Assembly: GCF_030013205.1 (NCBI RefSeq)
Contig: NZ_CP122648.1
Reading direction: 5' to 3' (one strand)
Origin: Escherichia coli
Lineage (GTDB): Bacteria > Pseudomonadota > Gammaproteobacteria > Enterobacterales > Enterobacteriaceae
DNA length: 64,000 nucleotides
The position numbers and the translations under genes are program-made. The notes below the pieces were generated by a model. The model made no database searches. It was given only the letters and a program-made list of their open reading frames with translations, and had not been told where the DNA came from. This document shows, piece by piece, positions 415 to 58,293 of this stretch (position 1 is its first letter; each line of letters starts with the position of its first letter).

Positions 415-1428
<1,014 letters not shown>

Positions 1429-1444
1429 TTGATTAGCGGATAAT

Positions 1445-1474
1445 AAAAAACCGGAGCACAGACTCCGGTTTTTT
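1445..1474. terminator. bidirectional intrinsic terminator after mdh
   Basis: perfect hairpin ccggagcacagactccgg flanked by A6 and T6 runs immediately after the mdh stop. Confidence 0.7.
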
Positions 1475-1477
1475 GTT

Positions 1478-2150
1478 GTGCACAGAAAACCCCCAGCTAG
1501 GCTGGGGGTTCCGGAAAGCTTTCAGCTTTGAGCCAGTTATTAAAACCCCTTTTGATTTGTTAAAACACCTTGCGGTCTGGCAACTGCAAGTGTCAAACAA
1601 GAAATCAAAAGGGGGTCCCAATGGGGAACGAAAAGAGCTTAGCGCACACCCGATGGAACTGTAAATATCACATAGTTTTTGCGCCAAAATACCGAAGACA
1701 GGTGTTCTACAGAGAGAAGCGTAGAGCAATAGGCAGTATTTTGAGAAAGCTGTGTGAGTGGAAAAGCGTACGGATTCTGGAAGCTGAATGCTGTGCAGAT
1801 CATATCCATATGCTTGTGGAGATCCCGCCCAAAATGAGCGTATCCGGGTTTATGGGATATCTGAAAGGGAAAAGCAGTCTGATGCTTTACGAGCAGTTTG
1901 GTGATTTGAAATTCAAATACAGGAACAGGGAGTTCTGGTGCAGAGGGTACTACGTCGATACAGTGGGTAAGAACACGGCGAAGATACAGGATTACATAAA
2001 GCACCAGCTTGAAGAGGATAAAATGGGAGAGCAGTTATCGATTCCCTATCCGGGCAGCCCGTTTACGGGCCGTAAGTAACGAAGTTGGATGCAAATGTCA
2101 GATCGTGTGCGCCTGTTAGGGCGCGGCTGGTAAGAGAGCCTTATAGGCGC
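1478..2150 (+). mobile_element. IS200-like insertion sequence (IS200/IS605 family); boundaries approximate
   Basis: carries a 152-aa Y1/HUH transposase ORF; perfect hairpin aaacccccagctaggctgggggtt near the left side; sits between two convergent-gene terminators; exact ends not determinable without a reference. Confidence 0.6.
1621..2079 (+). CDS. tnpA: IS200-type transposase TnpA (HUH/Y1 family)
   Basis: 152 aa from internal ATG of track ORF 1570..2079: MGNEKSLAHTRWNCKYHIVFAPKYRR... with HIH motif (ADHIHMLVEIPP); near-identical to IS200 TnpA as I recall it. Confidence 0.9.
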   Translation: MGNEKSLAHTRWNCKYHIVFAPKYRRQVFYREKRRAIGSILRKLCEWKSVRILEAECCADHIHMLVEIPPKMSVSGFMGYLKGKSSLMLYEQFGDLKFKYRNREFWCRGYYVDTVGKNTAKIQDYIKHQLEEDKMGEQLSIPYPGSPFTGRK

Positions 2151-2202
2151 ATTTGAAAAACCTCCGGCTATGCCGGAGGATATTTATTTTTGAGCGCACG
2201 AC

Positions 2203-3270
2203 TTAATTGGTTGCCGGATATTCCTGAATGGTGACCTGCAGCGTTAACTGCTTATCATCACGCATCACTACAACCGGGATCACCGAGCCAGGGCGAATTT
2301 CCGCCACCTGATCCATCGTCTCCAGAGCAGAGATGGCCGGTTTGTTATCCACCGAAATAATCAAATCGTTGACCTGAATACCCGCATTCGCCGCCGGGCC
2401 GTCAGGTGACACTTCATTAACCACGATCCCTTGCAGTTGATCTATACCACCGCCCTGCGCGTGCAGTGGTGCGATCTCACGTCCGCCGATACCAATGTAG
2501 CCGCGGATCACGCGACCATCGCGGATCAGCTTATCCATAATTTTGGTTGCTAACTGGAAAGGAATCGCAAAGCCGATGCCTTCCGGCGTTTCGCCATCGT
2601 TACTCTTATCAAACGACAGCGTGTTAATGCCCATCAGTTCGCCCAGCGAGTTCACCAGCGCGCCGCCAGAGTTACCGTGGTTAATGGAAGCATCTGTTTG
2701 CAGGAAGTTTTGCCGCCCGGTCGGGTTCAGACCAATTCGACCCGTGGCACTAATAATCCCCTGGGTAATGGTCTGCCCGAGGTTGTATGGGTTACCGATC
2801 GCCAGTACCACGTCACCAATGTGCGGTACGCGACGTGCATTGATTGGAATGGTAGGTAAACCGCCAGTGGCATTAATTTTAAGTACCGCCAGATCGGTTA
2901 GAGAGTCAGATCCCACCAGCAATGCTTCAAATACACGTCCATCCTGTAAGGCGACGATGATCTGATCGGCGTCGTTGATGACGTGTTTATTGGTGATGAT
3001 ATAACCGCGTTGATCCATGATTACACCGGATCCCAGGGTGCGGATCTCAAGCTGGTTGTGAGAGTTGGTGTTCAAACCACGGTTGTAAACGTTAACCACC
3101 GCTGGCGCGGCGCGGCGAACCGCCAGATTATAGCTGGCAGGCGTCTCATCGGTACTGTCAAATTGCGGAGTGGAAAGCGGGTTAAGGCTGCGCAGCGAAG
3201 GCATGGCAACCAGCAGAATAGCGCCGACAATTAATCCAATCGCAACGGAACGTAAGAGCTTCACAAACAT
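2203..3270 (-). CDS. degS: periplasmic serine endoprotease DegS
   Basis: 355 aa, MFVKLLRSVAIGLIVGAILL..., trypsin-like protease plus PDZ; matches E. coli DegS. Confidence 0.96.
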   Translation of the reverse strand: MFVKLLRSVAIGLIVGAILLVAMPSLRSLNPLSTPQFDSTDETPASYNLAVRRAAPAVVNVYNRGLNTNSHNQLEIRTLGSGVIMDQRGYIITNKHVINDADQIIVALQDGRVFEALLVGSDSLTDLAVLKINATGGLPTIPINARRVPHIGDVVLAIGNPYNLGQTITQGIISATGRIGLNPTGRQNFLQTDASINHGNSGGALVNSLGELMGINTLSFDKSNDGETPEGIGFAIPFQLATKIMDKLIRDGRVIRGYIGIGGREIAPLHAQGGGIDQLQGIVVNEVSPDGPAANAGIQVNDLIISVDNKPAISALETMDQVAEIRPGSVIPVVVMRDDKQLTLQVTIQEYPATN

Positions 3271-55777: not shown

Positions 55778-56110
55778 ATGTACGAAGCTCTTTTAGTAGT
55801 TTTCCTTATTGTGGCAATTGGCCTTGTTGGTCTGATCATGCTGCAGCAAGGTAAAGGCGCTGATATGGGAGCCTCCTTCGGAGCAGGCGCTTCCGCTACG
55901 CTGTTTGGTTCAAGTGGTTCTGGTAACTTCATGACCCGCATGACGGCGCTGCTGGCAACGTTATTCTTCATCATCAGTCTGGTGCTGGGTAACATCAATA
56001 GCAATAAAACCAATAAAGGTAGCGAATGGGAAAACCTGAGTGCGCCGGCGAAAACCGAACAAACTCAGCCAGCTGCTCCGGCTAAGCCGACCAGCGATAT
56101 CCCGAACTAA
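55778..56110 (+). CDS. secG: protein translocase subunit SecG
   Basis: 110 aa from MYEALLVVFLIVAIGLVGLIMLQQGKGADMG (internal ATG). Confidence 0.96.
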   Translation: MYEALLVVFLIVAIGLVGLIMLQQGKGADMGASFGAGASATLFGSSGSGNFMTRMTALLATLFFIISLVLGNINSNKTNKGSEWENLSAPAKTEQTQPAAPAKPTSDIPN

Positions 56111-56124
56111 AAAGTAGTATCCGT

Positions 56125-56211
56125 GCCGAGGTGGTGGAATTGGTAGACACGCTACCTTGAGGTGGTAGTGCCCAATAGGGCTTACGGGTTCAAGTCCCGT
56201 CCTCGGTACCA
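56125..56211 (+). tRNA. leuU: tRNA-Leu (anticodon GAG)
   Basis: 87-nt gccgaggtggtggaattggtagacacgctaccttgaggtggtagtgcccaatagggcttacgggttcaagtcccgtcctcggtacca; long variable arm, anticodon loop cttGAGgt, 3' CCA encoded. Confidence 0.93.
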
Positions 56212-56217
56212 AATTCC

Positions 56218-56248
56218 AGAAAAGAGACGCTGAAAAGCGTCTTTTTTC
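56218..56248 (+). terminator. intrinsic terminator after secG-leuU
   Basis: agagacgctgaaaagcgtcttttttcg hairpin plus U-run. Confidence 0.7.
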
Positions 56249-56667
56249 GTTTTGGTCCTGGTCTGAGGAATGGTTGTCAGGTATCTGTATCTCGTCCAGT
56301 TGCTTTACTCGTAGCTGGTACTTTGAAACGATGGTATCGGTACGCCTTAGTTATAAACTTTTCCCTTCTGCTGACATAATTGGCACTTTATTGTGTCAAC
56401 TCCAGTTCCGGTACGAATACGGATATGTTTACTTCTCGATAAACCATCCTGCTCCTGTCAGTATAACTACTGATGGCTACGTTCTGCGTAATGTTTAGAG
56501 ACGCATTGATAATGTTATTTAATTACTGAGAACAATGGCCGCATCATTTAAAAAGAAAAAACTAACAGTGTTTCGGTCTGATATGGATCAGAGTTGAAAA
56601 ACATGTCTGATATAAAATTGAACATTGTTGATAATTGTTTATATTGGTTGTGAACTTGGATTTCTGG

Positions 56668-58293
56668 ATGACAGTATTCAACAAATTTGTTAGAAGTTTT
56701 AAATCTCATTGGTTGTTGTATCTTTGTGTTATTGTTTTTGGTATTACGAACTTAGTCGCCTCTTCCGGAGCGCATATGGTTCAGCGATTGCTGTTCTTCG
56801 TTCTGACCATCCTGGTTGTTAAACGTATATCATCCCTTTCGCTTCGCCTGCTTGTTGCCGCACCATTTGTGTTACTGACAGCGGCAGACATGAGTATTAG
56901 CCTCTATTCATGGTGTACCTTTGGTACAACTTTCAATGATGGATTTGCGATTAGCGTGCTGCAGAGTGATCCGGATGAAGTTGTCAAAATGCTGGGGATG
57001 TATATCCCTTATCTATGTGCTTTTGCCTTTTTATCCCTTCTTTTTTTTGCAGTAATAATAAAATATGATGTTTCCTTGCCGACGAAAAAAGTGACAGGAA
57101 TATTATTGCTGATTGTCATTTCGGGCAGTTTATTTTCCGCTTGTCAATTTGCTTATAAAGATGCAAAAAATAAAAAAGCGTTCAGTCCATATATACTAGC
57201 GTCGCGATTTGCTACCTATACACCGTTTTTCAATCTCAATTATTTTGCTTTAGCAGCGAAAGAGCATCAAAGATTACTCTCAATTGCAAACACGGTGCCG
57301 TATTTTCAATTATCAGTCAGGGATACAGGTATTGATACCTACGTGTTGATTGTGGGGGAGTCTGTACGTGTCGACAATATGTCTTTGTATGGATATACAC
57401 GCTCTACGACACCGCAAGTCGAAGCACAAAGAAAACAGATCAAACTGTTTAATCAAGCAATAAGCGGTGCACCTTACACTGCGCTGTCGGTTCCCCTTTC
57501 TTTAACTGCTGATTCTGTTTTGAGTCATGACATTCATAATTACCCGGACAACATTATTAATATGGCTAATCAAGCAGGATTTCAGACTTTCTGGCTAAGC
57601 TCGCAATCCGCTTTTCGGCAGAATGGTACAGCAGTTACCAGTATCGCCATGCGCGCCATGGAAACAGTCTATGTCAGAGGATTTGATGAATTGTTGTTGC
57701 CGCATTTATCGCAAGCGTTAAAGCAAAAGACGCAGCAAAAGAAACTGATTGTTCTTCATTTAAATGGAAGCCATGAACCGGCTTGTAGCGCCTATCCGCA
57801 ATCCAGCGCCGTGTTTCAACCGCAGGACGATCAGGATGCCTGCTATGACAACTCCATTCATTACACAGATAGTTTGCTAGGTCAGATTTTTGAATTATTA
57901 AAAGATCGCCGCGCCTCGGTCATGTATTTTGCCGACCACGGCCTGGAACGTGACCCTACGAAGAAGAACGTCTATTTTCATGGAGGCAGGGAGGCTAGCC
58001 AGCAGGCATATCATGTCCCGATGTTTATCTGGTATAGCCCCGTTCTTGGGGATGGCGTGGATCGCACAACGGAAAACAACATCTTTTCCACAGCTTACAA
58101 TAATTACCTGATTAATGCGTGGATGGGGGTAACAAAGCCGGAACAACCGAAAACGCTGGAGGAAGTGATTGCACACTATAAAGGAGACTCACGGGTTGTG
58201 GATGCAAACCATGATGTTTTCGATTATGTGATGCTCAGAAAGGAGTTTACAGAGGATAAGCAAGGTAACCCCACCCCTGAAGGGCAGGGTTGA
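56668..58293 (+). CDS. yhbX: putative phosphoethanolamine transferase (EptA-like sulfatase-family membrane protein) YhbX
   Basis: 541 aa from MTVFNKFVRSFKSHWLLYLCV (internal ATG); N-terminal TM segments, C-terminal sulfatase-like domain; visibly AT-rich compared with neighbours. Confidence 0.85.
   Translation: MTVFNKFVRSFKSHWLLYLCVIVFGITNLVASSGAHMVQRLLFFVLTILVVKRISSLSLRLLVAAPFVLLTAADMSISLYSWCTFGTTFNDGFAISVLQSDPDEVVKMLGMYIPYLCAFAFLSLLFFAVIIKYDVSLPTKKVTGILLLIVISGSLFSACQFAYKDAKNKKAFSPYILASRFATYTPFFNLNYFALAAKEHQRLLSIANTVPYFQLSVRDTGIDTYVLIVGESVRVDNMSLYGYTRSTTPQVEAQRKQIKLFNQAISGAPYTALSVPLSLTADSVLSHDIHNYPDNIINMANQAGFQTFWLSSQSAFRQNGTAVTSIAMRAMETVYVRGFDELLLPHLSQALKQKTQQKKLIVLHLNGSHEPACSAYPQSSAVFQPQDDQDACYDNSIHYTDSLLGQIFELLKDRRASVMYFADHGLERDPTKKNVYFHGGREASQQAYHVPMFIWYSPVLGDGVDRTTENNIFSTAYNNYLINAWMGVTKPEQPKTLEEVIAHYKGDSRVVDANHDVFDYVMLRKEFTEDKQGNPTPEGQG

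Follow-up and report, generated by a model that had tools for sequence, protein, structure and literature searches.

The genes mdh and degS of Escherichia coli face each other across a spacer of 62 bp in strain K-12 (...CCGGAGCACAGACTCCGG TTTTTTGTTTT GAGCGC...), whereas 774 bp separate them in the stretch of 64,000 nucleotides analysed here, which is referred to as the window. The question raised by this locus is what the additional DNA is, where precisely it starts and stops, and why it is found at this point. Over positions 1380 to 2280, the window shows 100% identity with the chromosome of the swine isolate E. coli CFSAN018748 (NZ_CP028192.1) from Denmark. The native components of the locus, with coding sequences taken from the open reading frame list and from the RefSeq annotation of this identical record, are as follows:

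490..1428, plus strand: mdh coding sequence, upstream of the insertion sequence and in the same orientation
2203..3270, minus strand: degS coding sequence, with its stop codon 14 nt from the right end of the insertion sequence
1451..1468, unstranded: native bidirectional intrinsic terminator hairpin of mdh and degS, CCGGAG-CACAGA-CTCCGG, with an A-run and a T-run on either side

The hairpin at 1451-1468 is identical in the empty site of K-12 and has a DNA folding energy of -12.6 kcal/mol (z = -6.7). It is the single bidirectional terminator with which the mdh-degS locus is natively equipped. Next after degS follows degQ.

The additional DNA is an ordinary, intact copy of IS200 in the variant IS200C, an element that is well known and already annotated. 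In the original prediction, made from the sequence letters, a 152-aa open reading frame had been recognised as an IS200-type HUH/Y1 transposase. The sequence quoted there agrees exactly with the gene given here, and the assignment is borne out by Pfam, NCBIfam and structure matches:

1621..2079, plus strand: tnpA, encoding a 152-aa Y1/HUH transposase with HUH motif H61-I-H63 and conserved Tyr110, identical to WP_000526135.1

The TnpA protein matches Pfam PF01797 (Y1_Tnp) with an E-value of 4.4e-38 and the NCBIfam equivalog NF033573 (transpos_IS200) with 147.7 bits (cut-off 55; E 2e-43), as well as the solved IS200/IS605 TnpA structures 2EC2 (4e-23) and 2A6M of IS608 (4e-19). The H61-I-H63 motif and Y110 align with the Sulfolobus TnpA (2EC2/2F4F), with Y110 positioned opposite the conserved SYF tyrosine. 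The similarity to IS200/IS605 TnpA, on which the prediction hinged, is strong, and the RefSeq/PGAP product name of WP_000526135.1 in the CFSAN018748 record is 'IS200/IS605-like element IS200C family transposase'. The gene is the sole one of the insert of about 0.7 kb; tnpB and iscB are absent, and there is no room for tnpB. The only other open reading frame of at least 40 aa in the insert (121 aa, 1639..2004, minus strand) lies antisense within tnpA and is unmatched. One copy of IS200C is present in the 64-kb window. Membership in the REP-associated tyrosine transposases (RAYT) was considered and rejected, as the REP_Tyr_transpos score of 32.2 bits falls below the cut-off of 80 and the flanks are unrelated gene terminators.

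Alignment of the window with the empty site of K-12 yields 712 additional bases, in agreement with the earlier statement that the spacer is far shorter in that strain. The insert at the mdh site amounts to 711 bp in four other strains, and comparison of five further IS200C sites (3' of guaA, galU, fabF, yccU and kdsA) with the K-12 empty sites gives 711 bp three times and 712 bp twice. As the one-base difference always falls inside a T-run, it is put down to T-runs of varying length. On the right side of the element (window 2189-2191, set against L013-L016 and K-12, L001), the T-run is one T longer than in four other occupied strains, and empty mdh sites vary by about 1 nt in length among strains (matches of 188-190 nt). 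The element is placed as follows:

1478..2188, plus strand: IS200C element of 711 bp, GTGCACAG...GATATTTATT, equally writable as 1476..2186 owing to a TT ambiguity

Its termini, GTGCAC... at the left and ...TATTTATT at the right, are not inverted repeats of each other. Eleven aligned E. coli copies have GTGCACAG...GATATTTATT in common, always with TT directly before it, and IS1541 of Yersinia pestis aligns to positions 1-711 of the interval with 87.5% identity. The six empty-site comparisons are compatible with a 711-bp insert without duplication as well as with a 709-bp insert accompanied by a TT duplication, and the two nucleotides TT at each boundary could accordingly represent a 2-bp target duplication around a 709-bp element. 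This second reading is opposed by one copy only, the IS1541 copy L094, in which the left flank ends in CT and the right end still reads ...TATT; this copy suggests that the terminal TT is part of the element rather than a duplicated target. The ends of IS200C are placed on these comparisons at 1478 and 2188, within a residual TT ambiguity of 2 nt. The interval originally proposed, 1476..2185, came within 2-3 nt of the ends derived here and is replaced by them.

The anatomy of the element follows that of IS200 in Salmonella enterica, and consists of these parts:

1488..1510, plus strand: left-end hairpin with GC core 1490-1497/1501-1508 and loop TAG, with GAAAA (1485-1489) before it
1546..1614, plus strand: SD-sequestering stem-loop predicted by folding, corresponding to nt 69-138 of Salmonella IS200 (Ellis 2015)
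1540..1630, minus strand: putative art200 (STnc490) antisense sRNA gene of about 90 nt, with coordinates transferred from Ellis 2015
2108..2151, plus strand: second stable stem-loop predicted in the right end, ahead of the subterminal hairpin (z = -4.5 for the folded interval 2095-2192)
2161..2179, plus strand: right-end subterminal hairpin CCTCCGGC-TAT-GCCGGAGG, with GAAAAA (2155-2160) before it and ATATTTATT (2180-2188) after it

Rfam RF01405 (STnc490) matches 1488-1611 over the full model with 146 bits, and both stem-loops of the Salmonella-type architecture fold at the published positions. The left-end hairpin, with GC core CCCCCAGC/GCTGGGGG and a fold z-score of -3.4, represents positions 1-23 of RF01405. 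By position it corresponds to the bidirectional terminator of Salmonella IS200 at nt 12-34 (Ellis 2015, PMC4513863), and we infer that it also serves as the TnpA-bound left subterminal hairpin. By analogy with Salmonella, the minus-strand start of art200 would fall at 1629/1630, the counterpart of the 5' ends at IS200 nt 153/154. Salmonella IS200 and E. coli IS200C are likewise about 710 bp in length, encode one 152-aa Y1/HUH tnpA and lack terminal inverted repeats, and the Salmonella element has the same left terminator hairpin, SD-sequestering stem-loop and art200/STnc490 region. Apart from a quoted length of 707 bp (PMC4513863), as opposed to 711 bp by the boundary definition used here, there is no substantive difference.

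The two subterminal hairpins are similar to each other and lie on one strand, each with an 8-bp GC core, a 3-nt loop and a preceding A-run, GAAAA(A). The right-end hairpin is absent from the K-12 empty site and has the same sequence in 47 Y. pestis and other copies. This modifies the original prediction in one respect, namely that the element would lie between two hairpin terminators: both hairpins exist, and the one at 1451-1468 is native and found in K-12, but the one at 2161-2179 belongs to the right end of the element itself. Sub-threshold Rfam matches to MicX, anti-hemB and isrF at about 1367-1543 were set aside as chance similarity to terminator hairpins.

We consider it very likely that the window carries an intact, autonomous IS200C (711 bp, tnpA only) that was inserted by single-strand peel-and-paste transposition directly 3' of the T-tract of the mdh/degS terminator, in the orientation of mdh and of replication. 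According to the IS608/ISDra2 paradigm, the cleavage site base-pairs with a short guide located 5' of each hairpin foot, and the lagging-strand template is used (Ton-Hoang 2012, PMC3333891). Transferred to IS200C, TnpA would bind the two similar subterminal hairpins, the A-runs (GAAAA) 5' of the hairpin feet would guide T-rich cleavage at the left flank (TTTNTT) and the right terminus (TTTATT), and insertion would take place into the lagging-strand template. The A-runs are read as guides because they occupy the guide position and both cleavage sites are T-rich. The plus strand of the window is G-rich, with a GC skew of +0.041, which would put the element's top strand on the lagging-strand template, in line with the family paradigm.

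IS608 of Helicobacter pylori and ISDra2 of Deinococcus share with IS200C a homologous TnpA, same-strand subterminal hairpins, insertion 3' of a fixed short flank motif, the lack of inverted repeats and an orientation consistent with the lagging-strand template. They differ in that they carry tnpB, recognise TTAC or TTGAT and have no reported need for a target hairpin, whereas IS200C has a T-rich TTTNTT at its left flank and right terminus and nearly always follows a host hairpin. Six insertion sites mapped to K-12 are presumably all co-directional with replication, given the positions of oriC and ter that we assume, a tendency in which the direction of replication and that of the upstream gene are confounded.

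Whether the copy should be regarded as mobile at all bears on this reading, since it could be an inert or domesticated relic that matters through its RNA, in the form of art200 and sRNAs from the tnpA 5'UTR, rather than through transposition. IS200 has been described as nearly dormant and transposes very rarely (PMC4513863), its 5'UTR-derived sRNAs regulate Salmonella genes (PMC5435999; PMC4513863), and the UTR structure is fully conserved in the window copy. Against this stand an intact tnpA with HUH motif and conserved tyrosine, and the copy number. An IS200C-like sequence is present in 3,096 of 5,426 complete E. coli genomes with a median of 1 place per positive genome (maximum 35), whereas there are 31 such places in CFSAN018748; copies of 100% identity are numerous in other strains, which points to a recent increase in copy number. 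RNA output and mobility are furthermore compatible with each other, and the relic explanation is considered improbable. Porcine O139:H1/ETEC strains related to CFSAN018748 carry 19-33 IS200C places per genome, and several human-associated lineages have about 20 copies, a high number for an element described as nearly dormant.

At the mdh junction itself, 26 of the 5,426 complete genomes are occupied and 5,400 are empty. The occupied genomes are mostly porcine ETEC and O139:H1 strains (19-33 places each), together with human isolates that include ST69. The insertion is hence common to 25 other complete genomes, mainly porcine edema-disease/ETEC strains. The expectation that the element distinguishes this strain from K-12 holds, as it is absent at this site from K-12 and from the 5,400 empty genomes, and most E. 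coli do not carry the open reading frame here. In strain FDAARGOS_1276, the same junction is occupied by an IS200 variant with 29 differing positions (96% identity), while strain 98210 has an element identical to that of the window next to an mdh that differs at 7 positions. Given the 96%-identical variant at the same junction, at least two independent insertions have probably occurred at the same mdh nucleotide, a pattern that could also have been produced by gene conversion between copies of the element instead of separate insertions.

The same comparison bears on the idea that the element was ancestral at the mdh locus and later disappeared, by deletion or precise excision, from K-12 and the majority of other lineages. 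IS200/IS605 elements do excise precisely and leave scarless empty sites, and the occupied genomes are of varied backgrounds (porcine O139:H1, ST69 and others). Ancestry is nevertheless very improbable, as the junction is empty in nearly all genomes, the copies match IS200C at other loci with 100% identity whereas 4-8 SNPs are found in the flanking mdh, and the diverged variant in FDAARGOS_1276 suggests repeated insertion. Insertion of IS200C remains the preferred reading, and it leads to the question of what singles out this nucleotide.

In E. coli, the left end of the element is found behind a GC-rich hairpin and T-run of a co-oriented upstream gene in 11 of 11 copies. The same TnpA was examined in 10 other genomic contexts, and in each of them the gene upstream has the element's orientation and stops about 40-65 nt short of it. 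The possibility that these flanking hairpins are carried by the element itself was rejected: they vary from copy to copy and also occur in the empty sites of K-12, which identifies them as host terminators. At the mdh site, the hairpin at 1451-1468 is followed by:

1472..1477, plus strand: target motif TTTGTT, six host bases that directly precede the element and fit the TTTNTT of 129 left junctions

These junctions were collected in a cross-taxon search for the exact 23-nt left hairpin with one genome per species, which returned more than 120 stretches. The exact hairpin is found in Yersinia, Vibrio, Brenneria, Dickeya, Edwardsiella, Budvicia, Pluralibacter, Oxalobacter and Mailhella/Desulfovibrio, and also in MAGs labelled Bacillota, Peptococcaceae, Elusimicrobiaceae and Saccharibacteria. 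The hairpin AACCCCCAGCTAGGCTGGGGGTT (window 1488-1510; loci L021-L140) is exact in copies that are only about 74-88% identical overall (Mailhella, Vibrio, Yersinia). Its wide spread reflects either extreme constraint or mis-binned MAG contigs.

The left ends of the IS200 group adjoin a hairpin and then TTTNTT. Among the matches listed, a stem-loop ends 1-10 nt upstream at 117 of 129 (91%) non-redundant left junctions from many taxa. The frequency of T at these junctions is 129 at position -1, 127 at -2, 110 at -4, 124 at -5 and 101 at -6, with -3 free, which yields the consensus TTTNTT. Hairpins were scored with one mismatch and loops of at most 10 nt, and the same rule was applied to the controls; it replaced a stricter one (perfect stem, loop of 3-8 nt) that had missed 3 of the 11 E. 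coli sites with visible hairpins. By this rule, a hairpin is found at 6.8% of random TT sites and 6-11% of TTTNTT sites. The frequency rises to 21% at intergenic-like TTTNTT sites, which lie outside long open reading frames by an approximate, ORF-based mask, and comparison with the junctions gives a binomial p of about 1e-64, a value that overstates independence because many sites come from few genomes. About 57 of the 124 pattern matches listed, from L085 onward, belong to the draft genome of Y. pestis NCTC5923.

As a tentative explanation, and one in which our confidence is limited, IS200-group transposases may home to intrinsic terminators, in which a GC-rich hairpin followed by TTTNTT on the lagging-strand template would mimic the element's own right end, with the A-run as a guide. 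Host terminators would be preferred, judging from the junction data, because their hairpin and T-tract look like that right end. The right terminus of the element indeed consists of a hairpin and TTTATT, the same motif as the TTTNTT of the left flank.

The association could instead arise after insertion, if any T-rich TTTNTT site in single-stranded DNA were used and only the harmless copies persisted. Insertions in genes or promoters would be purged, and IS200 was first found as a polar insertion within hisD (PMC4513863), a sign that sites other than terminators are usable; 12 of the 129 junctions, moreover, have no hairpin by the rule used. Selection for harmlessness does not readily account for a hairpin frequency of 91% at the junctions as opposed to 21% at intergenic-like TTTNTT sites, nor for the tight spacing, in which the stem ends 1-9 nt before the element. 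In every case the T-tract belongs to the top strand of the element, with a co-oriented upstream gene in the 11 E. coli copies, and neutral intergenic positions on the far side of the terminators are not used. We regard post-insertion selection as unlikely to be the main cause, though part of the preference for hairpins could stem from the persistence of insertions that do no harm. At the two-sided mdh terminator, the orientations are distributed 26 to 0, a count in which strand preference and the direction of the upstream gene are confounded: none of the 5,426 genomes has an IS200 facing the other way behind this terminator, though the minus strand offers a hairpin and TTTTTTATT.

A further observation that speaks against selection is the reuse of the element's right end, with its hairpin and TTTATT, as a target in tandem copies. 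IS1541 of Y. pestis and Y. pseudotuberculosis has identical left and right hairpins and the same flank of hairpin and TTTNTT as IS200C, from which it differs in its host, in its left end (GTGCCCAG instead of GTGCACAG) and in the occurrence of head-to-tail pairs. In such pairs of Y. pestis NCTC5923 (L086, L087, L089 and L133), the left end of one copy adjoins the right end of another, ...GGAGGATATTTATT, which fits the right end being a valid target. The pairs could also stem from a rolling-circle-like event.

If homing to terminators is correct, it would explain the harmlessness and persistence of these elements and their low fitness cost, the repeated hits at mdh and the head-to-tail pairs of IS1541. 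Landing sites would become predictable, with 23 candidate sites in the 64-kb window. It would also provide a natural DNA-transposon parallel to the terminator-homing group IIC introns. According to PMC1702495, these introns are likewise placed just downstream of intrinsic terminator motifs, described as an inverted repeat followed by Ts. However, they are retroelements with a ribozyme and a reverse transcriptase, are not homologous and use another chemistry, and the resemblance is one of function only. RAYT/TnpA-REP proteins, with a related Y1 HUH fold, act on GC-rich extragenic hairpins (PMC3333891), while the hairpins flanking IS200C are unrelated terminators and not a REP family.

The target rule is the only part of this analysis that may be novel, and its novelty is uncertain. 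According to a 1998 report by Odaert et al., IS1541 copies reportedly lie downstream of genes and share no consensus target. Among the papers found, none states the rule of TTTNTT after a hairpin or the resemblance to the right end, and Odaert 1998, Beuzon 2004 and He 2015 may partly cover it. In a study of pheL, IS1541 is located between pheL and pheA in Yersinia, that is, behind an attenuator. The interpretation given in 10.1101/2025.07.22.666184 is limiting transposase expression.

For the neighbouring genes, the consequences of the insertion appear to be minor. The hairpin and T-tract of mdh are unchanged. On the minus strand, the right-end hairpin is followed by TTTTT and was scored as terminator-like in the scan, and transcripts of degS probably now terminate at this hairpin. 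Rfam Ysr202 has a partial, sub-threshold match at window 2156-2189 on the minus strand, covering its last 34 positions (28.5 bits against a gathering score of 315; E 9e-6); this Yersinia sRNA may end in the right end of IS1541 read on the opposite strand. The match to the 3' terminator of Ysr202 hints that the right-end hairpin is able to stop minus-strand transcripts. Effects on the expression of mdh and degS are probably small, and it is plausible that both genes are undisturbed, as the original prediction had supposed. Locally, the copy appears as a neutral-looking marker of strain or lineage, and mdh as well as the essential degS probably remain functional.

Elsewhere the window has the appearance of an unremarkable E. 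coli chromosome and includes ArcZ, the greA leader, leuU, metY and the rimP leader. Between mdh and leuU (window 1428-56125), the interval is, by our assumption about the K-12 map, about 7 kb shorter than in K-12 with the insertion sequence included, and some of the genes that we take to lie between mdh and leuU in K-12 may be missing from the window. The G+C content falls to 0.42 at 56001-58000, between leuU and metY, in a stretch that, from the gene order we assume for K-12, is probably yhbX.
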